64,000 nucleotides of DNA from Nevskiales bacterium (GCA_050740255.1 JBOICV010000164.1:15035-79034), one strand, 5' to 3'; numbered from the stretch's first letter, positions 1,094 to 42,557 are shown. Notes: generated by a model from the sequence alone, not told the origin. Numbers and translations: made by a program.

Positions 1094-1310
1094 TTTTCGT
1101 CAGGTTTTGAGCCGGGCCGCCCACGTCCACGGCGTGGAGTATTCCACCCGCTTTCGGACCACTTCATTAACCAATAAAAATCATGCGCTTACAGATTTTG
1201 CGAACTTTTTCGCAGCGCTAAAGTCTCAGTTTACGAGCGCAAGTGACGGCGCTTCCCGCCTCTCCTCCCTGGGCGGGCTCCTATTCCGGCGCACCCCGCC
1301 GGAGCTAGTT

Positions 1311-1348
1311 CCCTGGCAGGATACCCCTTCCTGCCAGGGATTTTTTTT
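1311..1348 (+). terminator. rho-independent terminator hairpin
   Basis: CCCTGGCAGG (1311-1320) pairs perfectly with CCTGCCAGGG (1330-1339) across a 9-nt loop, followed by A plus a T8 run (1341-1348). Confidence 0.65.
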
Positions 1349-3300: not shown

Positions 3301-3975
3301 ATGTCCGGTCTGCTGTCGGGCCTGTCACGCGTACTGCAGGCTTTGTCGCTTTCGCTGTTCCTGTTGCCCATTGCGTGTTCGGCCGAACAGGCCCCGGCCA
3401 AGCCGGCGGACAGTTACAAGACCGGCGAACATTACATCGAGCTGACCGCCCCGGTACAGTCGGAGGCGCCGCCGGGACAGGTCGAGATTCTTGAATTCTT
3501 CCTCTACACCTGCCCGCACTGTTATCACTTCGAGCCCGTGATCGGACCGTGGTCGCAGAAACTGCCGGGCAACGTCGTGTTCAGGCGCGTGCCGGCGAAT
3601 TTCGGACCCAGCGCACCGTTATACGCGCGCGCGCACTACGCCGCCGAGTCCCTGGGTGTATTGGATAAAGTGCGGCCGGTCTTGTTCAAGGCCATTCATG
3701 ACGAGCGCCGCACGGTGGATAACGAAGCGGCGCTGGCAAAAGTATTTCAGGAAGCGGCGGGAATTGACGAGAAGACCTTCAAGGAGGCCTTCAGCAGCTT
3801 TGCGGTGGACAATCAAGTGCGCAAGTCCGACGCGCTGACCCGCGCCTACACCATTACCGGCGTGCCGGCGCTCGCGGTCGCCGGCAAGTACGTGATAAGT
3901 CCGCGCAATGGGGGCACTTTCGAGAACATGCTGAACATCGCCGATGCCCTGGCGACACGCGAAAAAGTTAATTGA
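3301..3975 (+). CDS. dsbA: thiol:disulfide interchange protein DsbA
   Basis: 224 aa with a signal peptide, the CPHC active site and a DsbA-like layout. Confidence 0.9.
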   Translation: MSGLLSGLSRVLQALSLSLFLLPIACSAEQAPAKPADSYKTGEHYIELTAPVQSEAPPGQVEILEFFLYTCPHCYHFEPVIGPWSQKLPGNVVFRRVPANFGPSAPLYARAHYAAESLGVLDKVRPVLFKAIHDERRTVDNEAALAKVFQEAAGIDEKTFKEAFSSFAVDNQVRKSDALTRAYTITGVPALAVAGKYVISPRNGGTFENMLNIADALATREKVN

Positions 3976-4255: not shown

Positions 4256-5437
4256 CTAGTCGAGCGCCTTATCCCCTTCGTAGATGATCTCCCAGCGGCC
4301 TTTTTTACCCTGCCGCCAGTACTGTTGTTTGTATTTCACCGCATTGAGATTGTTGCTTGAGTAGGCTTGGCGAAAGCTAGCCAGATAAAGCGGTTGTTTC
4401 TGCGGATAAGTGAACAGGCTTAAGTCCGTAAGCTTCACGCGGATTCTGGTTTTGGCGGCATTGACGCGTTTCTTGTGCGCGGTAAATTCCGCCAAATTCT
4501 GATCGTCAGTGCGAAAATCCCGCGCATAGTGGCTCAAGTATTTAACGGTTTTGCGCGACTCCCAATCCTTGCGCCACTGTTCGATTGCCTTGAGCAAGGC
4601 CGCTTCCTGTTTGCGCGCAGCCTTCGCATCAAGCCATTGCACCTGATCGGATAGCAGCACCGGCGCGCCGGCATCGGCTGCAAGTTCGATGCGTAATGCT
4701 TCCAGATCCTCGTTGGATACGGTGACGCAGCCACGGCTGGAACGCGGCGCCCTTGTATAGGTGTTCGGTGGCACGCCATGTATCCAGATACCGCCGCCGC
4801 TGCGATTTTGCGCGCGATCGAAGCGGTTGGGATAGGACAGCGGCAGCGCGCCGGCGCCGTAGAATTCGGTCAACTCGGCTGGCGGCAGAAATCCGGTGAC
4901 GCGATACAAACCAACCGGCGTCTTGCTGTCGCCTTGCTCGGTTTTGCCAAATCCGCTGACGCCGATACCGGCGTAGTAATGCTCGCGGATGTGCGGCCGA
5001 CCGTTTTTACCGCCTTCCAATAAATACAACCGGGCGCCGTTCAAATCCACCAGTGCTACGCGCATTTTCTCCGCGAGTCGGAGCACGGTACTGGGGATCG
5101 CATCGCTCGGCGGCGCGGTCTTGCGGTGCTGCCCGCGGAAACGCGCCTCTTCGATCAGGGCCTGCAGCCGCGCGTGTTGAGAGTCCACGGCGAGTGCCTG
5201 GGGCGCGCCGCTTTGCGCGCGCAGCAAGTCGCCATAAATCAACTGTGCCAGTTTGAAATTGGGCCGCTCGCGGGTGAGTCCGGCGAGTTCCTGCATCGCG
5301 GCGTCTGCACGGCCGGCCTGCAGTTCATCCAGCGCGCGCACCAGTCGCGATTCGGGATGATTATCCTGTTGCGCCGCGGCCAGCGCCGGCCAGATGCACG
5401 TAAGCGCGGCGTACAGGGCCGCGCAACGGAGTCTCAC
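4256..5437 (-). CDS. L,D-transpeptidase family protein (YkuD domain)
   Basis: ORF 4256..5668. I place the start at GTG 5437, which gives the signal-like N-terminus VRLRCAALYAALTCIWPALAAA and leaves 5 nt after the upstream gene's stop. Catalytic motif IWIHGVP...SRGCVTV. Confidence 0.8.
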   Translation of the reverse strand: MRLRCAALYAALTCIWPALAAAQQDNHPESRLVRALDELQAGRADAAMQELAGLTRERPNFKLAQLIYGDLLRAQSGAPQALAVDSQHARLQALIEEARFRGQHRKTAPPSDAIPSTVLRLAEKMRVALVDLNGARLYLLEGGKNGRPHIREHYYAGIGVSGFGKTEQGDSKTPVGLYRVTGFLPPAELTEFYGAGALPLSYPNRFDRAQNRSGGGIWIHGVPPNTYTRAPRSSRGCVTVSNEDLEALRIELAADAGAPVLLSDQVQWLDAKAARKQEAALLKAIEQWRKDWESRKTVKYLSHYARDFRTDDQNLAEFTAHKKRVNAAKTRIRVKLTDLSLFTYPQKQPLYLASFRQAYSSNNLNAVKYKQQYWRQGKKGRWEIIYEGDKALD

Positions 5438-23407: not shown

Positions 23408-23484
23408 GCGCCCGTAGCTCAGCTGGATAGAGTGCTGCCCTCCGAAGGCAGAGGTCGTGAGTTCGAATCTCACCGGGCGCGCCA
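23408..23484 (+). tRNA. tRNA-Arg (anticodon CCG)
   Basis: Folded by hand into a cloverleaf. Acceptor GCGCCCG/CGGGCGC, D arm GCTC..GAGT, anticodon stem CTGCC/GGCAG with loop CT-CCG-AA, T arm GTGAG-TTCGAAT-CTCAC, encoded CCA. Confidence 0.95.
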
Positions 23485-26788: not shown

Positions 26789-27508
26789 ATGAAGCACGCA
26801 AAGCTGCTGGCCGCTGTGCTGGTCTTGTTCAGTGCGCCGGCGCTGGCCCAGGTCAGCGGCAATATCACCGCCATCAGTGAGTACATGTTCCGCGGCGTCG
26901 CCCAGGAGGGCGGCGCGGCGCTGCAGGGCAGCCTGGACTATAGCCGCGAAGACGGCTGGTATTCGGGCGTCTGGGGTTCCAATTGCAGCGAATGCGGCGG
27001 CAACGAAATTGACTTTTACGGCGGCTGGACGGGTGAAGTCGGCCGTGGCGTAACGCTCGATGCCGGCGTGGTCTATTACCTGTTTACCGAGGACGCAGAA
27101 GTCAGCGGCGCGCCGGACATCGACTATCCGGAAATCTATCTCGGCGCCGGCTATGACGGCTTGAGCGGCACGCTTTACTACAGCAATAAGCTGGTGGACG
27201 AATTGAGCGACATCCCGGGCAGCGACCAGACGGGGTTTTATTTCACCGCGGATTACACCCATGCGCTGCGCGAGGGCCTGGAATTGGTGTTGCAGGTGGG
27301 GCGCAGTTGGGGCGATGGTGTTGACGCCGTCTTAGGCGACGCCTACACCGATTACAGCGTCACCGTGGTAAAAACGCTGGACGACGGCTTCAGCCTCAGC
27401 GCCGCGGTAATCGATACCGACCTGGACGCTGATGCCACCGCCACGACACCGGCCAGGGAGGACGACCCCAAGTTTGTGGTGGGTTTGAGCAAGGATTTTG
27501 CGTTTTAA
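26789..27508 (+). CDS. TorF-family putative porin, copy 2
   Basis: 239 aa. Signal peptide, signature AISEYMFRGVAQ..ALQGSL, DYPEIYLGA, C-terminal ..SKDFAF. Confidence 0.8.
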   Translation: MKHAKLLAAVLVLFSAPALAQVSGNITAISEYMFRGVAQEGGAALQGSLDYSREDGWYSGVWGSNCSECGGNEIDFYGGWTGEVGRGVTLDAGVVYYLFTEDAEVSGAPDIDYPEIYLGAGYDGLSGTLYYSNKLVDELSDIPGSDQTGFYFTADYTHALREGLELVLQVGRSWGDGVDAVLGDAYTDYSVTVVKTLDDGFSLSAAVIDTDLDADATATTPAREDDPKFVVGLSKDFAF

Positions 27509-27656
27509 GTTATTCGCGTGGGGTGAAGCCCTGAAGCTGGATGCGTTCGCGCCGGTCCGCGTGCAGTGGCTGGAGGAAGATTTTTTCCGGCGGTAATCGG
27601 CGGCAGAAGCAAGGCCCGCCAATCCTCGAAGCACAAGCCGGCGTGTTCGGCCGGGC

Positions 27657-30600
27657 TCATCCCTCATCCGCCTGAACCACCAGCAAATCCTGCCCCGCCG
27701 CCACGGCGCCGCCTTCCTTGCAGAACAGATGCGTCAGGATGCCGTCGCAGGGCGCGGCCAGGGAGAATTCCATTTTCATGGATTCGACGACGACCAGGGT
27801 TTGGCCCTGTTTTACGGCGTCGCCCACCCGGGCTTCTAGCCTCCACACGCTGCCGGCGACAGGGGTTGTCACCGGGCGCGCGTGTTCGGGCAGCTCCAGT
27901 TCGCGCTCGACGCCCGCCGCCGCCAGCGTCAGGTCGTTGGCGACCACGTCCTGTCCGGCGGCCTTCCAGCGTTCGCGCTCAGCTTCGAAAGCGGCCTGCT
28001 GGCGGGCCCTGAACTCGCCGATGGAAGCGGCGTTGGCCTCCAGGAAGAGGCGGTAGTCCTTGAGGCGGAAGCGGGCGGCTTCCAGCTTCAAGCGGAATCT
28101 GCCGCTGGCGAAATCCTCGCGCAGCTTGAGCAGCTCCGCCTCGCCCACCGGGTAGAAGCGCAGCTGGTCGAAGAAGCGCAGCAACCACGGTTGCGTGAAG
28201 TCGGCCGTGCGGCGGTGGCGGTTCCACATTTGCACCGTGCGGCCGACGAACTGGTAGCCGCCAGGCCCTTCCATGCCATACACGCAGAGATAGGCGCCGC
28301 CGATGGCCACGGCATTCTCCGGGGTCCACGTGCGGGCCGGGTTGTACTTGGTGGTGACCAGCCGATGGCGCGGGTCCAGCGGCGTCGCCACCGGCGCGCC
28401 GAGGTACACGTCGCCCAGGCCCATGACCAGGTAGCTGGCATCGAACACCACCCGGTACACGTCCTCGGTGGATGCCAGCCCGTTGATGCGGCGAATGAAC
28501 TCGATGTTGCTTGGACACCAGGGCGCATCGGGCCGCACCGACTGCATGTACTTGTCGATCGCCAGCCGGGTCGCCGGGTCGTCCCAGGACAGGGGTAGAT
28601 GGACGATGCGCGATGCCACCTCCATGTCGTCGAGACTGGGCAATCCCGCTTCCAGCGCCACGATTTTTTCGATCAATTCGTCCTGATCGGCGAGGCGGGG
28701 ATCGAAGTGGATTTGCAGCGAGCGGATGCCGGGCGTGAGGTCGAGCACCCCCCCGATCCTCCCGGCGCCGATTTCGTCCCGCAGCGCCTGCATCAGCGCG
28801 TGGATGCGAAAACGCAGTGCGAGATCGAGCACCGGCGGACCCATTTCGATCAGCAGGTTCGCGTCGCCCGATTGCCGGATCACCAAGGCGGGCCTCTCGT
28901 CCTCCCGTTCAAGCTGGCGCAGTACCGGCGTGCCGAGGAGGGCGTGTGCCACCGGCAAGCTGGCGAATGCCGGCGCGGGCGAGTGAAGGCCGGCGATGGC
29001 CGCGTCCTGGGCGGCTTGCAGGGCACGCGCCTGCGCGCCGGTGAGACGCTTGAAGCGAACCGTGGCGCCCGGCTTCAATTGACCCAGCTTCCACAACTCG
29101 GCCTGAACGATGCAGGCGGGGCAGACGAAACCGCCCAGGCTGGGTCCGTCGGGACCGAGGATGACCGGCATGTCGCCGGTGAAATTGACGGCGCCGATGG
29201 CATAGGCGTTGTCGTGGATATTCGAAGGATGCAGCCCCGCCTCACCGCCGTGCGCGCGCGCCCACTGCGGCCTGGGGCCGATCAGGCGGACCCCGGTTCG
29301 GGAGGAGTTGTAGTGCACTTCCCAGGCGGTGGCGAAGAAGCTCGCGATGTCGGCCTCGGTGAAAAAATCCGGCGCGCCATGGGGGCCGTACAGCACGCCG
29401 ATTTCCCAAGCGTCGCTCAGCGTCGGTTGCAGTCGGGCGTCCAGCTCGCTCACGCTTCCGTGTCGCTCGACGGGGATACGGGCTGTGATGTGCAACACGT
29501 CACCGCTACGCAGAGTGCGCCCGCCATGGCCGCCGAACTGGCCGAGGGTGAAGGTGGATTTGGAGCCGAGGGTGTCGGGCACCTCGAAGCCTCCGGCTAC
29601 GGCCAGGTAGCTGCGCAGCCCGGCGCCCTGCACGGCGCCCAGCTTGAGCACGCTGCCCGCCGGCACCGGATGGGCCTGCCATCCGGCCACGGGCGTGCCA
29701 TCCAGGGTGGCCTGCAGGGCCGCGCCGCCGAGGGCGATCAGGCTATCGCAATTGAAGCGCAAGCTCGGTCCGGCTGCCGTGAGTTCCAGCGCCGCGGCCC
29801 CTTCACGGTTGCCCACCAGCCGGTTGGCCAGACGCATGGACAAGTTGTCCATCGGGCCGGACGGCGGCACGCCCACATCCCAATAGCCTTGCCGTCCCGG
29901 CCAGTCCTGGATGCTCGACTGCAAGCCGGGCTCCAGCACGTCGGCGGTCGCCGGCCGGTAGCGGAAGCCGTCCAGCATGCGGGTGGTCTGGCGGCCGGCG
30001 ATGAAGTCCGGACTGGCCAGCACCTGGGCCAGGTAAGCCAGGTTGGTTTCGATGCCGGCCACGGTGCTGGCCTGCAACGCAGCGATCAGCTTGGCGCGCG
30101 CCGCCTCGCGAGTCGCGCCGTGGGCGATGAGCTTGGCCAGCAGCGGGTCGTAGTTGGGCGGCACCTCGGTGCCGGCCTCGACCCAGCCGTCGACACGTAT
30201 TCCGTCCGGGTAGGCCACGGCGCTGAGCAGGCCTGTCGACGGCTGAAAATTCTTGTTGGGATCTTCAGCGTAGAGGCGGACCTGGATCGCCGCACCGTGC
30301 GGTTCGATGACGAAGCTGTCGAGCGCCGGCAACTCGCCGGCGGCCAGGCACACCATCCACTCCACCAGGTCCACGCCGGTCACGGCTTCGGTGACGCCAT
30401 GCTCCACCTGCAAACGGGTGTTCACTTCGAGGAAATAGAACGCGCCGGCGCCGACGTCATAGACGAATTCCACGGTACCGGCGGAGCGATAGTTCACCGC
30501 CTGGCCGAGCTTGACGGCGGTGGCCAGCAGAGCGGCGCGTTGCGCGTCGCTCAAGCCGGGTGCCGGCGTTTCCTCCACCACCTTCTGGTTGCGTCGCTGC

Positions 30601-31289
30601 ACCGAGCAATCGCGCTCGCCCAGGGCGATCACGCCGCCATGGCCGTCGCCGAAGATCTGTACTTCGATGTGGCGCGCGTGCTCGACGTATTTTTCGAGAT
30701 AGCTGCCGGCTTGCTTGAAGTTGGCGCGGGCCAGGCGCTCGACGGTGGCGTAGGCTTGCGCCAGTTCGTCCTCGCTGCGGATCAGGCGCAGGCCGATGCC
30801 GCCGCCGCCGGCGGTGCTCTTCAGCATCAGCGGATAGCCGATGCGCCGCGCCTCGGCGGCGGCATGGCCGGCGTCGGCCAGCAGGCCGGACCCCGGCAGC
30901 AGCGGCACGCCATTTTCTTCGGCCAGTTGCCGCGCCGTATGCTTGAGGCCGAAGTCGCGCATGTGCTGCGCCGCCGGGCCGATGAAGACAATGCCGGCAG
31001 CAGCGCAGGCGTCGGCGAAATCCGGGTTCTCGGAGAGGAAGCCGTAGCCCGGGTGGATAGCCTGGGCACCGCAGGCCTGGGCGATTTCAAGAATCCGGTC
31101 GGCCCTCAGATAACTTTCGCTGGCCGGGGCCGGGCCCAGCAGGTAAGCCTCGCCGGCCTGCCGCACATGGCGGGCGCCGGCGTCGGCGGCGGAATACACC
31201 GCCACCGACGCCACGCCCAAGCGGTCGAGAGTGCGCTGGATGCGGCAGGCGATGGCGCCGCGATTGGCGATCAGGACTTTGCTGAACAT
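27657..31289 (-). CDS. urea carboxylase / guanidine carboxylase (biotin carboxylase + KipA/KipI-like carboxyltransferase + biotinyl domain)
   Basis: 1210 aa. N-terminal [19 protein letters not shown]-grasp biotin carboxylase, central allophanate-hydrolase-subunit-like domains, C-terminal biotin attachment VESMKME. The substrate (urea vs guanidine) cannot be read from sequence by eye. Confidence 0.95.
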
Positions 31290-31305
31290 CGATTACCGGT
31301 GCGGG

Positions 31306-31971
31306 TTACGGCGCATCCCACAACAGAAACCGCACCGGGGTCGGGTTGTAGGCATTGCAGGGATTGTTGAGCTGCGGGCAGTTGGAGGCGAGCAGCCACA
31401 GGTCCATCTCGGCGCGCAGTTCCACATACTTGCCCGGCGCGGAGACGCCGTCCGCGAAACTGAGTTCGCCCGCCGCTGTCACCGGCACGTTCATGAAGAA
31501 GTTGATGTTGGGCACCAGGTCGCGCTTGCCGATGCCGATGTCGGCGTGCTGCAGGGCGGTCAGGAAATTGTCGCGGCAACTGTGCATGAACTTTTTCTGC
31601 AAGGCGTAGCGCACCGAATTGCTCTCGGCGGCACAGGCTCCGCCGAGCGTGTCATGACGCCCGCAGGTATCGGCGACGAGGGTCAGCATCAGCTTGCCGT
31701 CGTTGCTGTACAGCGCCGAATCCGTGGTCAGGTAGATGCCGCCCTGGCGCAGCAGGGTTTGCGTCGCGCTGTAGTGTTCGGCCGGGTCGTGCCGGTTGTA
31801 GAACAGCGCGTCCACCGCCTGGTTGCCTTCCAGGTCGACGATGCGCACGGTCTGCCCGCGCCCGATCTCGAGCAGGTAAGGCTCGCCGGCGGGCAGGGTG
31901 TGGTCGAGCACGGCGGCGGCGGGGTCGAAGCGGCTTTCGCGGATGCGGATGGCCGCGCTGGCATCGGTCAT
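31306..31971 (-). CDS. urea-amidolyase-associated protein UAAP2 (DUF1989; carboxyguanidine deiminase subunit-like)
   Basis: 221 aa. Paralogous by eye to the upstream 270-aa protein, in the canonical position immediately upstream of the carboxylase. Confidence 0.8.
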   Translation of the reverse strand: MTDASAAIRIRESRFDPAAAVLDHTLPAGEPYLLEIGRGQTVRIVDLEGNQAVDALFYNRHDPAEHYSATQTLLRQGGIYLTTDSALYSNDGKLMLTLVADTCGRHDTLGGACAAESNSVRYALQKKFMHSCRDNFLTALQHADIGIGKRDLVPNINFFMNVPVTAAGELSFADGVSAPGKYVELRAEMDLWLLASNCPQLNNPCNAYNPTPVRFLLWDAP

Positions 31972-31980
31972 GGCAGTTCT

Positions 31981-32793
31981 CTATCCGATGAGATAAAGCA
32001 TTTCGGCGTTGTGGATGGCGCGGGCGTTCTCGGGACGGAAGCCGCGGCAGTAATCGTCTTTCGGCGCCGGTCCGGAGCGCCAGGCCGCCAGGCCGACCGG
32101 CTTCGGCGCGTAGGCGGGCGACGGATCGAGCGGGTGCGGCGCGGTCGAACAGGCGAGCAGCACGTCCATCTCGAAGCGCAGTTCCACATGATCGCCGGGC
32201 TGGCTGTGATCGGGAACGAAATGGAAACGCCCTTCGCCGTCCACGCTCACCTTGGAGAAGAAATTCACCGGCGCCGTCAGGTCGCGCTTGCCCAAGCCGT
32301 ACTTGCCCAGTTCGATCAGCAGGCCGTCGCGCCCGGAGCGGTACATGCCGTTGCGCGCCGCCTGGTAGTTGCGCACGCCATATTTGCGCTGCATCGAGCC
32401 GGCGTCCAGCAGCAGGCCCAGGGGGTCGTGCCAGCCCAGCGTATCGGCGGTGATCGAGGCCAGGGCGCGACCCATGTCGCTCATCAGCACGTGGCCGCGA
32501 GTGTAGTGGGCCGTGTGCTGTGCCTTGAGCGAGTCCGGCATGTTGTAGCGCTCCAGCTTTTCGCGCGCCGAGTACAACACCAGGCTGATGTTGGCGCCGG
32601 CTGCCAGCGCCGTCAGGCGCAGCGTGGTGCCGCGCGCCAGCAGATACGACCAGTGGCCGCCGCCGGGAACTCGCTCGGAGAACAGCACCGACCCGGCCGC
32701 CAGGTCGGGCGCGAAACTGCGCCAGTGTTCCGGCGCATCCACCGGCGCGCTCGGGGGCGGATTTTGCGGAGTGAATTCAGCCGGGGTTTGCAT
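31981..32793 (-). CDS. urea-amidolyase-associated protein UAAP1 (DUF1989; carboxyguanidine deiminase subunit-like)
   Basis: 270 aa, in the canonical UAAP1-UAAP2-carboxylase order. Confidence 0.8.
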   Translation of the reverse strand: MQTPAEFTPQNPPPSAPVDAPEHWRSFAPDLAAGSVLFSERVPGGGHWSYLLARGTTLRLTALAAGANISLVLYSAREKLERYNMPDSLKAQHTAHYTRGHVLMSDMGRALASITADTLGWHDPLGLLLDAGSMQRKYGVRNYQAARNGMYRSGRDGLLIELGKYGLGKRDLTAPVNFFSKVSVDGEGRFHFVPDHSQPGDHVELRFEMDVLLACSTAPHPLDPSPAYAPKPVGLAAWRSGPAPKDDYCRGFRPENARAIHNAEMLYLIG

Positions 32794-33298
32794 GATGTTC
32801 CACGTTCGAAGAGCGCTTGGCGCGGGTGGCGGAAAGGGCAGTCGCCGGCAGCGGATGCAGGGGCGGCATCATGGCCGCCAGTAGCTGCAGCTGGCCGGTC
32901 ACCACGCCGCGCAGCGTGATCATATCGTTGGCGATGTCGCGCAAGCGTTTGGCAGGACCCTGGATCAGGATCACTTCCAGCAACTGGTCCTCGCTCAGAT
33001 GCACATGCAAGGAACTGATCACCTCGTCGAGATGGCGGTATTGGAGATCGGCCAGCTTCTTTAGCAAGCCCCGGGTGAGGCGGTCGTAGAGCAGCGTGAC
33101 GGTGCCCACCATGACGTGGTTGCCCAGTTCGCGCTTGTGCTCGGCCAACTGGTAGTTGACCATCTCGCCGATGGCCTGCGAGCGGCTGCCATAGCCGCGG
33201 CTCTGCACCATCCGGTCCAATTCCGCGAGCAGGTCTGGCGGCAGCGAGATGCTGATGCGGCTCACCAGGCGGTTGCTTGCATGCTTTTTTTTTGGCAT
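32777..33298 (-). CDS. NikR-family ribbon-helix-helix regulator with a degenerate metal site
   Basis: ATG 33298 within ORF 32777..33673. The N-terminus SRISISLPPDLLAELDRMVQSRGYGSRSQAIGEMV matches the NikR RHH (E. coli RVTITLDDDLLETLD..RGYNNRSEAIRD). The C-domain has SLHVHLSEDQLLEV versus E. coli [14 protein letters not shown]. The 3' end overlaps the UAAP1 start by 17 nt. Confidence 0.8.
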   Translation of the reverse strand: MPKKKHASNRLVSRISISLPPDLLAELDRMVQSRGYGSRSQAIGEMVNYQLAEHKRELGNHVMVGTVTLLYDRLTRGLLKKLADLQYRHLDEVISSLHVHLSEDQLLEVILIQGPAKRLRDIANDMITLRGVVTGQLQLLAAMMPPLHPLPATALSATRAKRSSNVEHHANPG

Positions 33299-33308
33299 TC
33301 CGTCCCCG

Positions 33309-34670
33309 CTAAAACAGGTAACTGTAGCGTTCGATCTCCCACTGGCTGACGCTGAGGTGATACGCCTCCCATTCCTCGGTTTTATAACGAATGAATTCGT
33401 CGCGCAATTCCTTGCCCAAGGTCGCTTGCACCAGTGGGTCGGCGGCGAAGGCGGCCACCGCCTCCTGCAGCGTCTGCGGCAGGAACTCGATGCCGCGGGC
33501 TTGGCGCTGTTCCTCGCTGATGGCATAGAGGTTGTCTTCGTTCGGGTTGCCCGGATCGAGTTTTTCGCGGATGCCTTCGAGTCCCGCCGCCAGCACCAGC
33601 GTCGCGGCGAGGTAGGGGTTGACCGCGCCGTCGGCGTTGCGCGACTCGCAGCGCCCACCGCCGGCCGGAACACGCACCGAGTTGGTCCGGTTGTTGGAAC
33701 CGTAGGAGTTGAACACGGGAGCCCACGAGTAGTAGCTCATCGCGCCGCGCCGCACCAGGCGCTTGTAGCTGTTTACCGTGGGGGCGAACACCGCGCACAG
33801 CGCGCGGCCGTGCTTGAGCATGCCGGCGATGAACTGGTAGCCCAGGGGCGTGAGCCCGATGCCGCGCCGGTCCTCCTGCGGGTCGCAGGCGAACAGGTTG
33901 CGGCCGCTGCCCGGATCGTAGAGCGACAGGTTGAAGTGGGCGCCGTTGCCGGTCTTGTCGGCGAAGGGCTTGGGCATCATGGTGGCGAGCAGGCCCTGTT
34001 CCCTGGCGTAGTGCTTGGCCATGAAGCGGAAGAAGATCAGGCGGTCGCAGGTGGTCAGGGCATCGGCATAGTTGAAGTCGAACTCGAACTGGCCGTTGGC
34101 GTCTTCGTGATCGAAGGAATACAGATCCCAACCCAGGCCGTTGATGGCCGTCGCCATCTGGTCCAACCACGGAAAGCTATTGGTGAAACCGCGCAGGTCG
34201 TAGCAAGGCTTGGTGAGCTTGTCATCGGCATCCGGCACCGACAGGCTGCCGTCGGCATGTTGCTTCAGCAGGAAGATCTCGCACTCGATGCCGAGGTTCA
34301 TGCCGAAGCCCATTTGTGCCGCTCGCGCCAACTGGCTTTGCAGCGCCACCCGGGTGTTGAGCGGATAGGGCCGGCCCTGGTAATGGTTGTCGGCGGGAAT
34401 CCAGGCGATCTTGGGCTCCCAGGGCAACTGGATCAGGCGGCTGAAATCCGGGACCGAGGTTATTTCGTCGTCATTGGGCGCCTGGCCCAGACCGTCCAGC
34501 GCATAGCCGGTGTAGCGCTCGGAACCGTGCGCCATAGCTTGCAGATGTTCGATGGGAACCACCTTGGCCTTGGGTATGCCGTGGATATCGACGTAGGCAC
34601 CGATGCAGTACTTGACCCCCTTTTCGGACAGCTCTTGCTGCAGGCGGGAGACAGCATCGATGGCGGACAT
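33309..34670 (-). CDS. glutamine-synthetase-family ligase (GlnA-like / gamma-glutamyl-amine ligase type)
   Basis: 453 aa. GS beta-grasp N-domain and catalytic-domain motifs (ECEFFL-like [22 protein letters not shown]). Confidence 0.85.
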
Positions 34671-34698
34671 GGTCTTTCCTCAGGGGCATGCAAGCGGG

Positions 34699-35493
34699 TC
34701 AGAAATCGGCGGTTACCGAGGTAGCGTAGGGCTGGTCCAGCGGGGGGTTCTCGGCCATCCCACGGCGGACCAGGTCGCTCAAGTCCTCGACCAGCCAGTC
34801 GAACCAGCGCGCGCCTTTCTCGGCGGTGGCCAGGCTGGGCTGGCCGGTGACGCCGTTGCGGCTGCTGCGGTTGACCGGATGGGCGAAGACGCAGCCGCCG
34901 CTGCGATCGGGATCGTCGGCGGCGGCTAGCCGTTCGGGACGTACTCCGCCGGGCGCGATAGCCAGCATCAGCGAAGTCTCGGCATCGTTGGCATGCCAGT
35001 CGGCGGCATCGGCAAAAAAATGGAATTGGCGCACCCGCTCGCTGATGTTGGCGGTATCGATCACGGCCACCATCAAGTCGTCATGCTCGGCGCGCAACAT
35101 TTCCAGCGCGCAGCGCAGGGGCGCGGCATTGGTCACGTGGGCGTTGACGATGAACAGCCGGCGCACGCCGCTGTGATAGGCCCAGTCGCCGATCTGCTTG
35201 ACCAGTTCGATCAGGGTGATCGGCTGCACCGCGAGGGTGCCGGGCCAGCGTTGGCTATGACCGATGGAACAGCCGTAAGGCAAAGTGGGCAGCATCGGTA
35301 CGCCGGTTTTTTCGGCGACGGCGGCGCATAGGTGTTCGGCGATCACCGTGTCCACGCCGCAGCCCAGATGCGGGCCATGTTGTTCGGTGGCGCCGACCGG
35401 CAGCAGGGCAGCGTGTCCGACCCGCGCCAAAACCGCGGGTATCTCGGACCAGGTCAGATCGGACCAGCGCCGGGAGCTTGGCCTATTCGACAT
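34699..35493 (-). CDS. creatininase-family amidohydrolase
   Basis: 264 aa with the family motif [13 protein letters not shown] and downstream His/Asp/Glu metal ligands. Overlaps the ABC ATPase stop by 11 nt. Confidence 0.8.
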
Positions 35494-36397
35494 TGTCGTT
35501 GACGTCCGTGAGCCGGATCAGCTGCGGCTTGACCGTCGCGTCCTCTTCCGCATCGAAGCTGACCGGCGGATGGATCAGTTCTTCCAGGCGTGCCCTGGTG
35601 GCGCGGAATTCAGCAGAGTTGAACTGCGCCGGAGCGCGCGGCCGCGGTACCGGTACCTCGATGAATTCCTGCACCTCGCCCGGCTGCGCCTTGAGCACCA
35701 GGATGCGGTCCGCCAGATAGGCGGCTTCGTCGAGATCGTGGGTGATGAACAGCACCGTGATGTCGATGTTCTTCCAGATGTCGAGCAGGTGCGATTGCAT
35801 GCGCGCCCGGGTCTGCGCGTCGAGCGCGCCGAAGGGCTCATCCATGAGCAGGATGCGGGGCTGATTGACCAGGGCGCGGGCGATCGCCACTCGTTGCCGC
35901 ATGCCGCCCGACAATTGATGCGGATAGGCGTCGGCGAACTTCGACAGGCCGACCAGGTCCAGCCACAGCAGGGCGTCGCGCTCGGCCTCGTCGCGGCCGT
36001 AGCCGCTCGTCTGGGGACCGAACATCACGTTCTTCTTGACCGTGAGCCAGGGGAACAGGGAATAGCCCTGGAACACCATGCCGCGGTCGCGGCCCGCGCC
36101 AAGCACTGGCTTTCCGTCCAGCAACACCTCCCCCGAACTATGGCTTTCCAGGCCGGCGAGGATGCGGATCAGGGTGGACTTGCCGCAGCCCGAGGGCCCG
36201 ATCGCGCAGATGAATTCGCGGCGATGGATCTTGAAGCTGACGTTGCGCAAGGCGTCCACTGCTCCCTGGGACGAGACGAAACGCTTGTTGAGATCGCGCA
36301 CTTCGAGGATGACTTCGCGCCGGTGGATTTTTTCGAAGCGCGCCTTGACCGCATCCGACTGCTGCAGGTAGTGGGGCCGGGGCAGTTCCGCTTGCAT
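35483..36397 (-). CDS. ABC transporter ATP-binding protein (NitT/TauT nitrate/sulfonate/bicarbonate family)
   Basis: 304 aa. Walker [10 protein letters not shown], signature LSGGMRQR, Walker B LLMDEP. Confidence 0.9.
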
Positions 36398-36400
36398 GGC

Positions 36401-37363
36401 TCAGCTCCGCTCCTGCGGACGGTCCCAGGGGAACAAGCGGCGGCCGAGCCGGTCGAGCGCCGCGTCGGTGCCGAAGCCGATGATGCCGATGATGATGATC
36501 GCGGCGTAGACGTTGTCGAAGTGCTGATAGCGCGCCTGCTGGGTGATAAAAAAGGTGATGCCCGAGCTGGAGCCGATCAGTTCCGCCACGATCAGGTAGG
36601 TCCAGGCCCAGCCCAGCAGGATGCGCTGGTCGCGGTAGAGGTCGGGCAGGATGCCGGGGACCACCACCCGCGTCAGCAGGCGCAGGCGGCGCGCGCCCAG
36701 GGTCTTGGCCGCCTCGAGAATGGTGGTGTCGAGTTTACGCGTGGTGTTGGCGACGATCAGCACCTGCTGGAACAGGGTGCCGATGACGATGATGGCGATC
36801 TTGGGACTGTCGTAAATGCCCAGCACGGCTACCGCCAACGCGCCGAAGGCGGGCGCGGGCAGGTAGCGGAAGAATTCGATGAAAGGCTCGTTGAGCCGGG
36901 ACAGGGTGACGTAGGTGCCCGAGAGAATGCCCAGCGGCACGCCGATCAGCGAGGAGAGCAGGAAGCCCCAGGCGATGATCTGAACGCTATGCCACAGACT
37001 CTCGTGCAGCCAGGGCGCGTCCCTCTGTTCCGGCGCGCGAGTGAAGGCGGTGTAGAAGGCGGCCGCCACCCGATGCGGCGCCGGCAGGTAAATCGGGTTG
37101 GCCGCGCGGCCCTTGGGCAGCGCTAGTCCCTGGGCGCGCATCTGGGCGACCTCGTCGGCGAAGACATCCTTGTCTACCAGCATGCCGACCTGGAAATAAT
37201 CCACGGCGCCGACCTCCTCGACCAGCACCTTGGGGTGCCAGACGAAGGGGACGTAGCTGACCACGCACCAGAGCAGGGTCGGCAGCAGAAACGAGCCGAG
37301 CGTCAGCAGCGAGCGCCGGCGTCGTGGGCGCCATTGGGGAATCATGTGGACGCCGCTGCCCAT
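36401..37363 (-). CDS. ABC transporter permease (NitT/TauT family)
   Basis: ORF 36401..37399; ATG 37363 is preceded by GGGAGG 5 nt upstream. Multiple TM segments, BPD-transport EAA-like loop (EAAKTLGA). Confidence 0.8.
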   Translation of the reverse strand: MGSGVHMIPQWRPRRRRSLLTLGSFLLPTLLWCVVSYVPFVWHPKVLVEEVGAVDYFQVGMLVDKDVFADEVAQMRAQGLALPKGRAANPIYLPAPHRVAAAFYTAFTRAPEQRDAPWLHESLWHSVQIIAWGFLLSSLIGVPLGILSGTYVTLSRLNEPFIEFFRYLPAPAFGALAVAVLGIYDSPKIAIIVIGTLFQQVLIVANTTRKLDTTILEAAKTLGARRLRLLTRVVVPGILPDLYRDQRILLGWAWTYLIVAELIGSSSGITFFITQQARYQHFDNVYAAIIIIGIIGFGTDAALDRLGRRLFPWDRPQERS

Positions 37364-37413: not shown

Positions 37414-38412
37414 TTACTCGGCGTTGGTGAAGGACGGATCGAGATAGCTGTCAACGTTCTGTGGCGCCTTGTAGACGCCGTTAGTGACGTTGAAGCTGTC
37501 GGCTACCTTGGTGGAGCCATAGAGGGACTCGAAGCCGTCGCCCTCGACGTAAATCTTCCTGCCTTCACTCAGACTGAGGAGCTTGGTGCCCTTGAGCAGG
37601 GGCAGGTAAGCCTCGGGCGCAATGCCCACCCGGGCCGCCATGATCTTGACCGCATCCGGCTGGGTCTTGGGGTCCTCGATGTAGCTCACCACCCGATCCC
37701 AGACCTTGACCACCTTCTGCCAATCGGCGCGCCGGCTCTTGACGCTGGCTGGACTGACGGCGAGCACGTCGTAGATCAGCCCCGGTTCGTCGGCCGAGGT
37801 GTAGATGGGATGGGAGCCCGGCACGGCTTTCATCGCCTCGCCGATGACCGGCTGCCAGGCGCCTACCGCGGCGATGTCGGCCGCGCCCAGTATTTGCGGC
37901 ATTTCGTTGGTCTTGGCGTTGACCAGGGTGAGGTCGGATTCCTTGAGACCGGCTTTCTCCAGGCCGTTAAGCAACAGCAGGTGCTCCACCAGGCCGGCTT
38001 CCACCGCCACCTTCTTGCCCTTCAGGTCCTTGAGGGACTTGTACTGGGGCTTGGCGACGATCATGTCGTTGCCGTTGGAATAGTCGGTCAGCATCACCAT
38101 GATGCTCTTGGCGCCGCCGGCGCCGGTCACCAGCGCGTCGCCATTGGTCATGGTGACGGCATCAATCTTGCCGGCGGTGAAGGCGTCCATCGAGGCGGAA
38201 TAATCGAACCACTCGAAAGTGACGTCTACACCCGCCTCCTTGAACCAAGCCTTGTCTATCGCCACCTGCCAGGCCACCCAGCCCGGCCAGTCGCTATAGC
38301 CGATCTTGAGCGGCGCAGCCGCCTGGGTGGCGACGGATGCCAGCGTGGTGGCGCCCACCAGCAGGCCTGCGAACCAGCGTTTCACCCTTCCCCCGGTCCT
38401 GTTCGTTTCCAT
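37414..38412 (-). CDS. ABC transporter periplasmic substrate-binding protein (NMT1/THI5-like)
   Basis: ORF 37414..38556; ATG 38412 is preceded by AAGGAG 7 nt upstream. It gives signal peptide ..LVGATTLASVATQAAA followed by PLKIGYSDWPGW. Confidence 0.85.
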   Translation of the reverse strand: METNRTGGRVKRWFAGLLVGATTLASVATQAAAPLKIGYSDWPGWVAWQVAIDKAWFKEAGVDVTFEWFDYSASMDAFTAGKIDAVTMTNGDALVTGAGGAKSIMVMLTDYSNGNDMIVAKPQYKSLKDLKGKKVAVEAGLVEHLLLLNGLEKAGLKESDLTLVNAKTNEMPQILGAADIAAVGAWQPVIGEAMKAVPGSHPIYTSADEPGLIYDVLAVSPASVKSRRADWQKVVKVWDRVVSYIEDPKTQPDAVKIMAARVGIAPEAYLPLLKGTKLLSLSEGRKIYVEGDGFESLYGSTKVADSFNVTNGVYKAPQNVDSYLDPSFTNAE

Positions 38413-38434
38413 GGTTCGACTCCTTGAAGATGCG

Positions 38435-38462
38435 GTATTACGATTCAACACGAAAGTCATAC
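38435..38462 (-). promoter_or_regulatory. NikR-type operator candidate GTATGA-N16-TAATAC
   Basis: The minus strand reads GTATGA-ctttcgtgttgaatcg-TAATAC (plus strand GTATTA 38435-38440, TCATAC 38457-38462). This is one mismatch from the E. coli nik operator GTATGA-N16-TCATAC. It lies between the sigma54 promoter and the SD/ATG of the first operon gene. Confidence 0.5.
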
Positions 38463-38482
38463 TTGGCGCGTCCTCTATCTCT

Positions 38483-38498
38483 AGCAAGAACGGGGCCA
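38483..38498 (-). promoter_or_regulatory. sigma54 (-24/-12) promoter of the ABC-to-carboxylase operon
   Basis: The minus strand reads TGGCCC-CGTTC-TTGCT, with exact GG-N10-GC spacing versus consensus TGGCAC-N5-TTGCW. It is about 70 nt upstream of ATG 38412. Confidence 0.6.
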
Positions 38499-38814
38499 GT
38501 GCCGGGTCAGCGGTCAAGCGTCTGTTTGCGCCAGGTTTGTGGTTTTTCGGGGGCACAGGCGGCCCTTGGGCGCCCGTTCAGCCTTGTGCGAGTGCGCCGA
38601 TGCACCAAAGTAAGCGCGTAGGGAAGCGCACCGGGTTAGCGGCGCGTAGCCGGTTCCGTGTCATTCACGCACCACTGTCTTGGTCCTGGTGTCCGTGACT
38701 TACGCGGGAGATCGCGCAGACCGGCCCTAACTCAGGTTGACCCACGACCGGTTGCGGAGTAATTTCGCTGGGAGGGGCGCTGACATTCCTATTCTTTTGG
38801 GGGACAAGCACGAC

Positions 38815-40635
38815 GTGCAGGAGCGCGCCGATGCGTCCGGCCTCGGCCTCGATTTGACGACCCTCACGGCCCGGTACGGGGCCGGCGCTACGACCCCCTC
38901 GGAGGTCGTCCGCGTCGTCTACCGGCGCATCCCCGAGTACCTCTCGAACCCCCTCTGGATCACCCTCCGGCCCGAGGAGGACGTCCTCGGCGAGGCCCTG
39001 GCCCTCGAAGCGCGCGGGCCCGCGCGAGGGCCGCTCTACGGACTGCCCTTCGCGGTCAAGGACAACCTCGACTGCGCGGGGTTGCCGACGACCGCGGCCT
39101 GCCCGGCCCTGACCTATATCCCCGCGAAGAGCGCCCATGCGGTGCAACGTCTCCTGGATGCCGGGGCCCTCCTCATCGGCAAGACCAACCTGGACCAGCT
39201 CGCGACCGGGCTCACGGGTACTCGTTCGCCGCACGGTGTCTGCCGCAACCTGTTCGATGAGCGTTACATCGCCGGGGGCTCGAGCAGCGGCTCGGCGCTC
39301 TCGGTGGCCGCGGGTCTCGTCTCTTTCGCGCTCGGTACCGACACGGCCGGCTCGGGCCGGGTGCCGGCGGCGTTCAACAACATCGTGGGTCTCAAGCCGA
39401 CGCGCGGGCTGGTGAGCACCCGCGGGCTGGTGCCGGCCTGCCGCTCGCTCGACTGCGTCTCGGTCTTTGCGCTCTCCTCGACCGACGCGCTGGCGGTCCT
39501 GCGCGTGCTTGCCGGCCACGACCCCGAGGACCCGTATTCGCGGTCGGACGCCTCGGTGATCGGGCTTGCGCCCGTCGCGCCGCCGGCGAGCTTTCGGTTC
39601 GGCGTCCCGAACGCGCTCGAGTTCTTCGGCGACGGCGAGGCGGAGCGGCTCTTTCACGCCGCGCTGCGACGCCTCGAGACGCTCGGCGGCACAGCCATCG
39701 AGATCGATTTCGCCGCGTACCGGGAAGCCGGGCGGCTCCTCTACGGCGGCCCCTGGCTCGCCGAGCGCTTCCTCGCACTCGCGCCCCTCCTGGCGCGCGA
39801 TCCCGATGTCCTGCACCCCGTCGTGCGCGCCGTGGTCGAACCCGGGGGACGACACTCGGCTGCCGAGTGTTTCGCCGCGCAGCATCGGCTACAGGCACTC
39901 GTCCAGGCCACCCGCCGAGACTGGGCGGCGATGGACCTCCTCGTCACCCCCACGGCCGGGACGTGTTATACGCGCGCGGCCATTGAGGAGGAGCCCATCC
40001 GGCGCAACGCCGATCTCGGGTACTACACGAACTTCGTCAACCTCATGGATCTGTGCGCCCTGGCCGTGCCCGCCGGCTTCACCGGCTCGGGTCTGCCGTT
40101 CGGGGTGTCGCTGCTCGCACCCCCCTTCCGTGAAGGCTTCTTGTGCGCGCTGGGCCATGCGCTACACGCCGCGCAAGGGTTGACGGTGGGGGCGACCCGC
40201 CATCGTCTGCCTGTCGGTCCGGCCGCGCTACCAGCGGACGGCACGACGGTGCGGCTCTGCGTCTGCGGTGCGCACATGTCGGGACTGCCCTTGAACGGCG
40301 AGCTGCTGCGGCTGGGTGCGCGGTTTGTCGGACCCGCGCGCACGGCGCCGCGTTACCGTCTTTATTGCCTCGATCGCTTCGCGCCCCCGCGGCCGGGGCT
40401 CGTGCGCGAGGCGCTCGGCGCCGCGATCGAGGTCGAGGTGTGGGCGCTGCCGGTCGCGGGCTTCGGCGCCCTGGTCGCCGGGATTCCCGCCCCACTCGCG
40501 ATCGGACGGGTCGAGCTCGAGACCGGGGAGGAGGTCGCGGGCTTCCTGTGCGAGGCCCACGCGACCGAGGGCGCCCGCGACATCACCACGCATGGCGGTT
40601 GGCGCGGGTATCTGGCCACCGGGGGCGGGCCATGA
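38815..40635 (+). CDS. atzF: allophanate hydrolase (amidase-signature family)
   Basis: ORF 38737..40635. Amidase signature GGSSSGSA and the C-terminal AtzF-type domain are present. The start is uncertain: TTG 38737 coincides with a -35-like TTGACC, so I prefer GTG 38815, preceded by GGGGGA. Confidence 0.85.
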   Translation: MQERADASGLGLDLTTLTARYGAGATTPSEVVRVVYRRIPEYLSNPLWITLRPEEDVLGEALALEARGPARGPLYGLPFAVKDNLDCAGLPTTAACPALTYIPAKSAHAVQRLLDAGALLIGKTNLDQLATGLTGTRSPHGVCRNLFDERYIAGGSSSGSALSVAAGLVSFALGTDTAGSGRVPAAFNNIVGLKPTRGLVSTRGLVPACRSLDCVSVFALSSTDALAVLRVLAGHDPEDPYSRSDASVIGLAPVAPPASFRFGVPNALEFFGDGEAERLFHAALRRLETLGGTAIEIDFAAYREAGRLLYGGPWLAERFLALAPLLARDPDVLHPVVRAVVEPGGRHSAAECFAAQHRLQALVQATRRDWAAMDLLVTPTAGTCYTRAAIEEEPIRRNADLGYYTNFVNLMDLCALAVPAGFTGSGLPFGVSLLAPPFREGFLCALGHALHAAQGLTVGATRHRLPVGPAALPADGTTVRLCVCGAHMSGLPLNGELLRLGARFVGPARTAPRYRLYCLDRFAPPRPGLVREALGAAIEVEVWALPVAGFGALVAGIPAPLAIGRVELETGEEVAGFLCEAHATEGARDITTHGGWRGYLATGGGP

Positions 40636-41780: not shown

Positions 41781-42557
41781 TTACAAGCTTCGCGCAACCG
41801 TGAACACCACGCGCCCTTCGCACACGTCCTCGCCCACACCCGCGAACAGCAAACAGTCTTTCTCGTTCAGATCGGTGTCGGTGTAGGCCAGCGTGAAATT
41901 CAGGCCGGCCGCCGCCAGTCCGAGCGCGACGCTGTAGTCCGTGTAGCTGTCCTCGAGGGCGACGGGGAGGGGTGGCACGAGCGTTTCCTTATCCAGCGTC
42001 TGATGGCCGACGTGGAAGCCCAGCGAGAAATTATTCTGTAACGGTATGCCCAGGTTCGCTTCGTAGTAAAAACCGTCATCGAAGGCAAGCCCGAAGAAAT
42101 CCGGCGAATAGTGGATTTTGCCGTTGATATTGAAAGTGCCGAAGTCGTAGAACAGCGCCGGGGTCAGCTCGAGATAGTCGTATTCCAGCTGGCTGTCGGT
42201 GCCCGGGTAGAGGAAGTACGTCAGATTGATGTCCCAGCCGGCTTTTTCGTTCGGGAACTTGCCACCCCAGCCGACATAGATATCGAACTCGACTTGCCCG
42301 TCGTCAACCTCAAGGGGATCGGGTAGCAGTTCGTTTTCGTTGAAGTCCACATTGGAACCCCATACTCCGGCGTAAAACCCGTTGTCCTCCTTGAAGTCTA
42401 TGCTGCCCTGAAACGCCGGGTCTTGTGAACTTTGCGAGATGCCGCGGAAGACGTAATCGCTGGTTAAATAAACGGTGCCGCTAAAGCCGGTCGCGAGCGC
42501 TGCGCTACTCAATCCCGCCAAGGCGGCCGCCACACCTGCTGTGAAAATCTTACGCAT
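41781..42557 (-). CDS. TorF-family putative porin, copy 3
   Basis: 258 aa. Signal peptide, then the signature LTSDYVFRGISQ..AFQGSIDF. Confidence 0.8.
   Translation of the reverse strand: MRKIFTAGVAAALAGLSSAALATGFSGTVYLTSDYVFRGISQSSQDPAFQGSIDFKEDNGFYAGVWGSNVDFNENELLPDPLEVDDGQVEFDIYVGWGGKFPNEKAGWDINLTYFLYPGTDSQLEYDYLELTPALFYDFGTFNINGKIHYSPDFFGLAFDDGFYYEANLGIPLQNNFSLGFHVGHQTLDKETLVPPLPVALEDSYTDYSVALGLAAAGLNFTLAYTDTDLNEKDCLLFAGVGEDVCEGRVVFTVARSL

Follow-up and report, generated by a model that had tools for sequence, protein, structure and literature searches.

A conserved candidate operator for a predicted NikR-family repressor without the nickel site, at the sigma-54 promoter of a urea/guanidine carboxylase operon

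The window, that is, the whole stretch of 64,000 nucleotides (64 kb) that was analysed, comes from a Nevskiales bacterium (GCA_050740255.1, JBOICV010000164.1:15035-79034). Starting from an ATG at 38412, nine tightly packed genes follow one another on its minus strand, and neighbouring genes overlap by up to 17 nt or are separated by at most 50 nt, in keeping with a single transcription unit. Judged from the sequence, this operon likely ends at the hairpin at 27638-27654. An allophanate hydrolase gene, the start codon of which is uncertain, shares a 324-bp intergenic region with the operon leader. A pair of DUF1989 proteins (CgdA/CgdB-type), the carboxylase and the allophanate hydrolase, the genes expected of a guanidine carboxylase pathway operon, are all encoded in the window. 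The features are as follows:

38737-40635, plus strand: allophanate hydrolase, divergent (Pfam Amidase and AH_C; NCBIfam match over the cut-off)
38483-38498, minus strand: predicted sigma-54 promoter TGGCCCCGTTCTTGCT with the -24/-12 elements, TGGCCC-N5-TTGCT
38435-38462, minus-strand reading: candidate operator of 28 bp, GTATGAC-N14-GTAATAC, half-sites 38462-38456 and 38441-38435
38420-38425, minus strand: ribosome-binding site AAGGAG, 7 nt 5' of the ATG at 38412-38410
37414-38412, minus strand: first gene, periplasmic binding protein, NMT1/SsuA-like (Pfam NMT1 and NMT1_2)
36401-37363, minus strand: ABC transporter permease (Pfam BPD_transp_1; start codon uncertain, open reading frame to 37399)
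35483-36397, minus strand: ABC transporter ATPase (Pfam ABC_tran)
34699-35493, minus strand: creatininase-family amidohydrolase (Pfam Creatininase, E 1.6e-69; under the NCBIfam creatininase cut-off)
33309-34670, minus strand: type III glutamine-synthetase-like ligase (NCBIfam TIGR03105, 668 bits, over the cut-off)
32777-33298, minus strand: sixth gene, NikR-like regulator of 173 aa (RHH, NikR_C and a disordered tail)
31981-32793, minus strand: DUF1989 protein UAAP1, carboxyguanidine deiminase subunit family (Pfam and NCBIfam)
31306-31971, minus strand: DUF1989 protein UAAP2, carboxyguanidine deiminase subunit family (Pfam and NCBIfam)
27657-31289, minus strand: biotin-dependent urea/guanidine carboxylase of 1210 aa (TIGR02712, 1843 bits)
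27638-27654, minus strand: terminator-like hairpin directly 3' of the carboxylase stop codon (consensus match only)

The binding protein encoded by the first gene scores 151 bits against NCBIfam TIGR03427, the 'urea carboxylase-associated' type, for which the cut-off is 334. On the minus strand, the leader (38498 to 38410) consists of the sigma-54 element, 20 nt, the 28-bp box, 9 nt, AAGGAG, 7 nt and the ATG, with 22 nt between the box and the start codon. All elements of this layout, as listed in the first-pass annotation of this DNA, were found at the given spacing, including the hexamers GTATGA (38462-38457) and TAATAC (38440-38435) separated by N16, and the NikR-family regulator that it had placed inside the same operon (32777-33298) is borne out by Pfam and NCBIfam matches. 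The sigma-54 element, with GG at -24 and GC at -12, matches 10 of the 11 positions of the consensus TGGCAC-N5-TTGCW and is the single match to TGGCMC-N5-TTGCW in the window, where 0.22 are expected. Likewise, the pattern GTATGA-N16-TCATAC with up to one mismatch is matched once in the 64 kb, at the leader site, against 0.01 expected from shuffled sequences (one of 100 shuffles gave a match), and this is still the only site when two mismatches are allowed (0.45 expected). The site is statistically unexpected in the window, which counts toward a true operator. The next match, at 3597-3624, has three mismatches and was rejected as a second box in the window, this being chance level. By analogy with canonical sigma-54 geometry, in which transcription begins 12 nt downstream of the -12 GC, the start point would lie near 38472 and the box at about +11 to +38. 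The window sequence and this predicted start point agree with the earlier proposal that the box lies 3' of the sigma-54 promoter at a spot suited to repression.

Close relatives of the locus share this arrangement. A scan of one genome per species picked out relatives of the regulator in 404 stretches, of which the best 80 were retained. Operon synteny with the regulator is conserved in these best 80 loci, the usual order being binding protein, permease, ATPase, creatininase-like protein, glutamine-synthetase-like ligase, NikR-like regulator, UAAP1, UAAP2, carboxylase and allophanate hydrolase; the hydrolase gene, divergent in the window, is the last gene of the operon in the relatives. Scanning the 80 loci with the Escherichia coli consensus recovered solely sites of the type GTATTAC-N14-GTAATAC, and the consensus was therefore rebuilt from the regulator's own family, giving RTATTAC-N14-GTAATAC (54 distinct 28-mers). 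In these 54 distinct sites the core TATTAC/GTAATA is 94-100% conserved while the flanks and the spacer sequence vary, with T at position 5 in 53 of them and an invariant A at position 24 (54 of 54). The alignment of orthologous leaders, which the first-pass annotation had proposed, showed a spacer of 14 nt in 65 of 65 related sites, and a sigma-54 element with at least 9 of 11 consensus positions stands ahead of the box in each of the 65 leaders. This element mostly ends 13 nt before the box (range 3-20 nt). Among the best 80 of the 404, the box is present in the leader of the binding-protein or permease gene in all leader-containing loci but one, 9-65 nt 5' of the start codon and after the sigma-54 element. 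The exception, L005, keeps the regulator gene and has a guanidine-I riboswitch in its leader, with no recognisable box. The box of L042 was missed by the scan and spotted by eye, its right half-site being degenerate, as is that of L047. Where the operon is split (L011, L015, L032 and L078), each unit has its own box, and no off-target box with up to two mismatches was found elsewhere in the 1.26 Mb of loci.

Two side observations concern the box itself. The half-site GTATGA of the window is a one-base departure from the family consensus, and the window box combines this G with the greatest distance from the promoter among the aligned leaders (20 nt, the extreme of the range). Loci of the Thiobacillus/Gallionella group carry a further palindrome, TGAATATT-ACG-AATATTCA, which overlaps with the left half-site; a box for ArgR or for a different known regulator was considered for TGAATATT-N3-AATATTCA and rejected, the spacing not being that of an ARG box.

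The enterobacterial NikR box has been described as GTATGA(T)-N16/N14-(A)TCATAC (PMC545781, PMC7055735) and the delta-proteobacterial one as GTGTTAC-N13/14-GTAACAC (Rodionov et al. 2004, PMC545781). Per half-site, the family consensus is two bases off the enterobacterial type but only one base off the delta-proteobacterial type (GTGTTAC versus GTATTAC), with which it also shares the 7-N14-7 layout. Its two inverted half-sites of 6-7 bp around a fixed spacer of 14-16 bp, making 28 bp in all, agree with the architecture of both published types. Delta-proteobacterial boxes precede nickel transporters and the corresponding NikRs are assumed to bind nickel, whereas the regulon here is that of a guanidine/urea carboxylase. 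The E. coli nik operator, one base apart from the window box, has G at position 5 in both halves; the window has it in one half only and the family has T. The first-pass annotation had called the site an E. coli-type NikR operator. The attribution to the NikR family stands and the E. coli type does not, the family consensus being GTATTAC-N14-GTAATAC; judged from the family alignment, the resemblance of the window box to the E. coli type is a coincidence of one base.

The box also accompanies more distant regulators. In the plasmid and chromosome records used for this comparison, proteins of 42-46% identity in Acinetobacter, Novosphingobium and Asticcacaulis are encoded in the same gene clusters with the same box before each unit, and in all three genera the regulator's own gene is preceded by a box. 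In Acinetobacter baumannii three boxes precede UAAP1, the regulator gene and the permease gene, respectively, and an Acinetobacter plasmid carries the same three, one of them with the half-site GTATGAT, which has the G seen in the window. The Novosphingobium cluster has four boxes, and Asticcacaulis has one in a divergent intergenic region. One of the Acinetobacter boxes sits just upstream of the -24 element. As the A. baumannii chromosome record has a NikR-family match in one place only, no other member of the family is present there to account for the three boxes. The box is absent from five homologous operons without the regulator (Cupriavidus, Paraburkholderia, Pantoea, Caballeronia and Burkholderia), in which the sigma-54 promoter is followed by a guanidine-I riboswitch. 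Box and regulator thus travel together, the box being found with the regulator across three proteobacterial classes and absent from these five operons. Based on this co-occurrence and on analogy with NikR, we hold with good confidence that the box is the operator of the NikR-like protein encoded in the same operon.

The regulator matches the Pfam models NikR_C (E 1.5e-24) and RHH_1 (E 4e-7) and scores 117 bits against NCBIfam NF003381 'NikR'; it is named 'nickel-responsive regulator' in public records because the cut-off of this model (105) is passed. An AlphaFold model (mean pLDDT 71) comprises an RHH domain (strand 13-18, helices 21-34 and 39-58), a ferredoxin-like domain and a disordered tail of about 30 residues with a conserved PP motif. 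Its top Foldseek matches are NikR structures, and the C-terminal domain fits NikR 1q5y and 2y3y with a TM-score of about 0.9 and an rmsd of about 1 Å. Alignment confirmed the DNA-reading beta-strand as previously annotated, R-I-S-I-S in the window protein versus R-V-T-I-T in E. coli. In NikR the high-affinity nickel site is formed by His87, His89, Cys95 and His76', and the square-planar His3Cys coordination couples nickel to DNA binding (PMC7055735). At these positions the window protein has Tyr87, His98, His100 and Leu106, and hence two of the four ligands are kept, namely the equivalents of His87 and His89 in the motif LHVHL. Relatives of 65-80% identity have Tyr or Phe for His76 and Leu or Met for Cys95. 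The ligand set reads Q-H-Q-I in the Acinetobacter regulators and A-H-F-S in those of Novosphingobium, so that the His89 equivalent is Gln and Phe, respectively, with the same box beside both. Among the nearest ~67 cluster representatives (one per 50% identity) Cys95 is never present and every ligand position is variable, H62 included, whereas the more distant canonical NikRs among the representatives are uniformly HHHC. Specifically conserved in the clade are the Ser at the second reading position, a Leu-Pro after the strand, Gln113, Leu119 and the C-terminal PP, and the C-terminal domain and tail are strongly conserved in the beta/gamma group. No conserved ligand pocket replacing the former nickel site was found in the ~67 representatives. 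Nickel sensing by the regulator was rejected on this ligand conservation: the canonical nickel site is gone and the protein is therefore very probably not a nickel sensor. This agrees with the earlier caveat that the effector may not be nickel, made in view of the degenerate ligand set.

Several features are shared with E. coli NikR: the RHH and NikR_C architecture, a 28-bp dyad in which two helical turns separate the half-site centres, the role of repressor (predicted here) and a gene near the controlled genes. The two proteins differ in their reading residues, which are R-S-S in the window and R-T-T in E. coli, and in that E. coli NikR has the H76 and C95 ligands and a nickel-uptake target, whereas the window protein lacks both and has a nitrogen-catabolic target. 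Also, unlike that of E. coli nikABCDE, the window promoter is predicted to be sigma-54 dependent. The closest solved relative is NikR of Pyrococcus horikoshii (PDB 2bj1 and related entries; E 9e-30, ~40% identity), which shares an R-x-S-x-S strand and the motif EVISSLHVH with the window protein; in contrast to the full His3Cys site of this NikR, two of the four ligand positions are taken by Tyr and Leu in the window protein, which also has an extra PP tail. Helicobacter pylori NikR has in common with the window regulator the reading residues R-S-S, an AT-rich operator and a nitrogen-releasing enzyme, urease, as target. However, it is nickel-dependent with a full ligand set, activates the urease genes and has no link to a carboxylase pathway. 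The operator of H. pylori NikR is TATWATT-N11-AATWATA.

How might such a protein act at a sigma-54 promoter? As in NikR, a tetramer is predicted, in which each 7-bp half-site would be read by one RHH dimer, the half-site centres being 21 bp apart. Bound at about +11 to +38, the protein would block open-complex formation or promoter clearance; in the relatives the predicted position of the box is about -7 to +38. Repression would cover the transporter, creatininase-like, glutamine-synthetase-like, regulator, DUF1989 and carboxylase genes, and would amount to negative autoregulation, as the regulator is encoded in the repressed operon. This repression would be layered on sigma-54 activation, for which the input is probably nitrogen limitation through NtrC: in many relatives NtrC-like TGCACC-N5-GGTGCA matches (9-11 of 12 positions) cluster 110-157 nt upstream of the box, which suggests nitrogen limitation as the activating signal. 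In the window, no upstream NtrC-like site with at least 9 of 12 positions was found. The distance of 3-20 nt from the -12 element to the box, together with the Acinetobacter box upstream of the -24 element, favours steric occlusion over a phase-dependent activator contact. AAA+ enhancer-binding proteins are the only activators known for sigma-54 promoters, which also points to steric repression. The full model of autorepression at the sigma-54 promoter, including the predicted binding, repression and start point, is likely in our view.

The signal to which the protein might respond is suggested by the operons that lack it. The guanidine-I riboswitch (ykkC, RF00442) occupies the same spot in those homologous operons, between the sigma-54 promoter and the first gene, and differs from the box in that it is an RNA that senses guanidine and acts on elongation, the box being a DNA site for a protein predicted to act on initiation. 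Box and guanidine-I riboswitch are nearly mutually exclusive in leaders, which suggests that the regulator supplies the substrate-dependent induction that the riboswitch supplies elsewhere. Because the box holds the leader position of this riboswitch, the leading candidates for an effector are guanidine, urea and metabolites of the pathway, any of which would serve as inducer, an assignment that we put forward tentatively. Equally tentative is the wider idea, which is tied to such sensing, that a metalloregulator fold without nickel took over the role of the guanidine-I riboswitch at sigma-54 promoters. Failing these, and unless the protein has no effector at all, the signal would be a different one, for instance the nitrogen status or a partner protein bound by the PP tail. 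The two kinds of control do coexist at some loci. L068, L075 and L076 have a separate carboxylase operon that begins with a guanidine-I riboswitch, and this riboswitch is also found in the leaders of L005 and L079; in L079 and in the Acinetobacter UAAP1 leaders it lies 3' of the box. In addition, 53 of 55 loci have tandem hairpins of the guanidine-II or guanidine-II-like kind in the gap that separates UAAP2 from the carboxylase gene, as counted by motif-level (regex) matches rather than confirmed riboswitches, with five reaching the Rfam gathering threshold; many of these hairpins have ACGC or ACGT loops in place of ACGR. This coexistence weakens the idea of the protein as a guanidine sensor.

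What kind of element the box is and which protein reads it can be weighed on the aligned sites. An RNA hairpin in the 5' untranslated region, with a 7-bp stem and a 14-nt loop and acting on translation or mRNA stability, would fit a repeat that is probably transcribed (predicted +11 to +38) and that lies 22 nt upstream of the start codon. However, among the 54 distinct sites there is no compensatory change and each change breaks a pair, with A-C mismatches at pair 1/28 (19 sites) and at pair 3/26 (six sites) and a G-A mismatch at pair 5/24 in the window; what is conserved is the bases and not the pairing, and the Acinetobacter box upstream of the promoter would stay untranscribed. As no change preserves pairing, the element is better read as DNA recognised by a protein, and a hairpin function is extremely unlikely. 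That this protein is a different, unlinked transcription factor, with the NikR-like protein having other targets, appears just as improbable. Such a factor gains some room from the fact that the assignment of the box draws on co-occurrence and analogy, and the palindrome of the Thiobacillus/Gallionella group could belong to another factor. Yet box and regulator co-occur in three proteobacterial classes with the box missing from the five regulator-free operons, the half-sites have the sequence and spacing usual for operators of the NikR family, and in Acinetobacter, Novosphingobium and Asticcacaulis a box stands ahead of the regulator gene itself.

Two further explanations accept the NikR-like protein as the reader of the box and differ on what, if anything, it senses. 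The first-pass annotation had offered a nickel-sparing switch, in which the nickel-loaded regulator would repress the carboxylase route as long as a nickel-dependent urease or guanidinase is functional. Physiologically the idea is attractive, the regulator is over the NCBIfam NikR cut-off and the LHVHL motif keeps two histidine ligands. This rationale fails on the protein itself: His76 is replaced by Tyr and Cys95 by Leu in the window, with Tyr/Phe and Leu/Met in the close group; the Gln and Phe at the His89 position in Acinetobacter and Novosphingobium go with an unchanged box; ligands vary and Cys95 is missing throughout the nearest clusters, as opposed to the HHHC of distant canonical NikRs; and in NikR it is through the square-planar His3Cys site that nickel is coupled to DNA binding (PMC7055735). 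No nik, urease or hydrogenase genes stand next to boxes in any locus examined, where the boxes precede ABC-transporter, DUF1989/carboxylase and regulator genes. Nickel control of the operon is thus very unlikely on the sequence evidence, and the sparing switch with it. It is less far-fetched, though still unlikely, that the NikR-like protein has no effector, binds constitutively and caps the sigma-54-driven expression of its own operon. Hydrophobic replacements at the former nickel site would then lock the DNA-binding form, and guanidine riboswitches would give specificity. The absence of a pocket replacing the nickel site means that the protein could act without a small-molecule effector, the unconserved former site, H62 included, points the same way, guanidine sensing would already be provided by the guanidine-II-like elements ahead of the carboxylase gene (53 of 55 loci), and many RHH autoregulators, such as Arc, Mnt and CopG, are generally known to be ligand-free. 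Against this, the riboswitch-free window operon would be left with no substrate-specific control, the near-exclusivity of box and guanidine-I riboswitch suggests equivalent rather than unrelated roles, and the C-terminal domain and tail are strongly conserved in the beta/gamma group.

Taken with these alternatives, the box is very probably a conserved operator for a repurposed NikR-family protein that has lost its nickel site and is predicted to act as a repressor at the sigma-54 promoter of a nitrogen-catabolic operon. In the openly searchable literature, no description of a NikR-family protein with urea or guanidine carboxylase operons was found, in line with the earlier remark that this wiring was not known to be described. 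The literature also includes a paper on the A. baumannii 'mum' urea carboxylase (PMC5050338). If the reading is correct, the regulon would be widespread, relatives of the regulator being encoded in 404 stretches from Beta-, Gamma- and Alphaproteobacteria including A. baumannii, and the label 'nickel-responsive regulator NikR' would be a systematic but correctable misannotation within it. For the guanidine carboxylase pathway, so far explained by riboswitches only, control by a protein would be added as the layer that has been missing. The reading would also offer a natural case of a riboswitch and a repressor-operator pair swapping within one leader, and a clear-cut example of repression at a sigma-54 promoter. 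According to a 2025 review, riboswitches are the sole known guanidine receptors besides transporters and enzymes (PMC12186494); should the protein indeed sense guanidine, guanidine metabolism would have its first known transcription factor. A. baumannii, where one NikR-family gene goes with three transcription units that carry the box, is a tractable organism in which to test this.

The window operon departs from its relatives in the carboxylase region. A published criterion for the guanidine enzyme is Asp at the carboxylase position equivalent to 1330 of Kluyveromyces lactis (quoted in PMC11410670). Asp is found there in 59 of 59 related carboxylases, and together with the riboswitches this residue clearly marks the pathway in the relatives as a guanidine pathway. 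Aligned to the K. lactis urea carboxylase (3va7/5i8i), the window carboxylase has Asn702 (codon AAT) at this position, which by the same criterion is a urea-type residue. No riboswitch reaches the Rfam gathering threshold in the window, and the gap between UAAP2 and the carboxylase gene measures 16 nt, in which only the 3' flank of the second hairpin and the Shine-Dalgarno sequence are left; read from this remnant, the window operon has lost the riboswitch region before its carboxylase gene. The peculiarities of the window, taken together, hint at a change of substrate, and we hypothesize that its lineage may have shifted from guanidine towards urea. After such a shift, no substrate-related regulator other than the NikR-like protein would remain in the operon.

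The pairing of the 28-bp box, an inverted repeat predicted to be the operator of the NikR-like regulator, with the regulator gene has one sole clear exception among the related loci, namely L005, which encodes a NikR-like protein and has a leader (4620-4879) where the sigma-54 promoter is accompanied by a guanidine-I riboswitch and no recognizable box was found. In locus L079 (3628-4605), a perfect box is preceded by a sigma-54 promoter and followed by a guanidine-I riboswitch, and a 271-aa ORF without any Pfam match lies between the riboswitch and the binding-protein gene. Two more boxes, with 1 and 2 mismatches, are present on the Novosphingobium plasmid L082 (20418-20527), both 5' of a gene annotated as 'sterol desaturase family', which is followed by a TPR-sulfotransferase gene. 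It is possible that the two genes are extra regulon members with no connection to the carboxylase. On the plasmid of Acinetobacter sp. NCu2D-2 (L084, 13326-17456), the boxed permease-ATPase unit runs on into genes for a 2OG-Fe(II) oxygenase, a hypothetical protein and an SMR transporter, a set resembling the genes for methylguanidine demethylation and guanidinium export that the abstract of PMC12508155 describes.

In L013, L024-L027, L035-L037 and many more Thiobacillus/Gallionella loci, a second palindrome, TGAATATT-ACG-AATATTCA, overlaps the box in its left half-site and in some of the spacer. It accompanies an A in place of G at box position 1 and is not present in the window. This palindrome could provide a second binding register or could be the site of another factor.

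The regulator itself (32777-33298, minus strand) lacks the full set of nickel ligands although it is named nickel-responsive. Public records give it the name 'nickel-responsive transcriptional regulator NikR' because its score exceeds the cut-off of the NCBIfam equivalog NF003381, and this naming is probably a systematic misannotation across the whole clade. Genes coding for a creatininase-family protein and a GS-III-like protein (33309-35493) are kept between the transporter and regulator genes in most beta/gamma loci. Neither occurs in the Acinetobacter, Novosphingobium and Asticcacaulis clusters or in the regulator-free operons.

At the K. lactis 1330-equivalent position, Asn is indicative of a urea carboxylase and Asp of a guanidine carboxylase, a criterion quoted in PMC11410670. 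The carboxylase encoded in the window (27657-31289, minus strand) has Asn at this position (residue 702, codon AAT at 29184-29186), and Asp is found in 59/59 related carboxylases. Asn702 represents either a shift in substrate towards urea or a one-base oddity of this assembled genome. Upstream of this gene, the gap separating it from UAAP2, a gene of the DUF1989 pair, is only 16 nt long (31290-31305), compared with 65-240 nt in the relatives, where it contains guanidine-II-like tandem ACGN hairpins. The window still has the Shine-Dalgarno sequence together with the 3' flank CCCGCACC, and the gap looks as if the riboswitch had been precisely deleted.

The flanking genes and the Rfam matches in the window are:

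1253-1348, plus strand, anti-hemB (Burkholderia RNA 7), 51.6 bits, barely over the 49.5-bit threshold
23408-23481, plus strand, tRNA
26789-27508, plus strand, Gcw_chp-family (PF09694) gene flanking the locus
41781-42557, minus strand, Gcw_chp-family (PF09694) gene flanking the locus

The two RNA matches bear no relation to the operator finding. The Gcw_chp-family proteins may be channels that carry the substrate across the outer membrane. In Cupriavidus (L085), the homologous operon is likewise followed by a gene annotated as 'TorF family putative porin', a possible member of that family.
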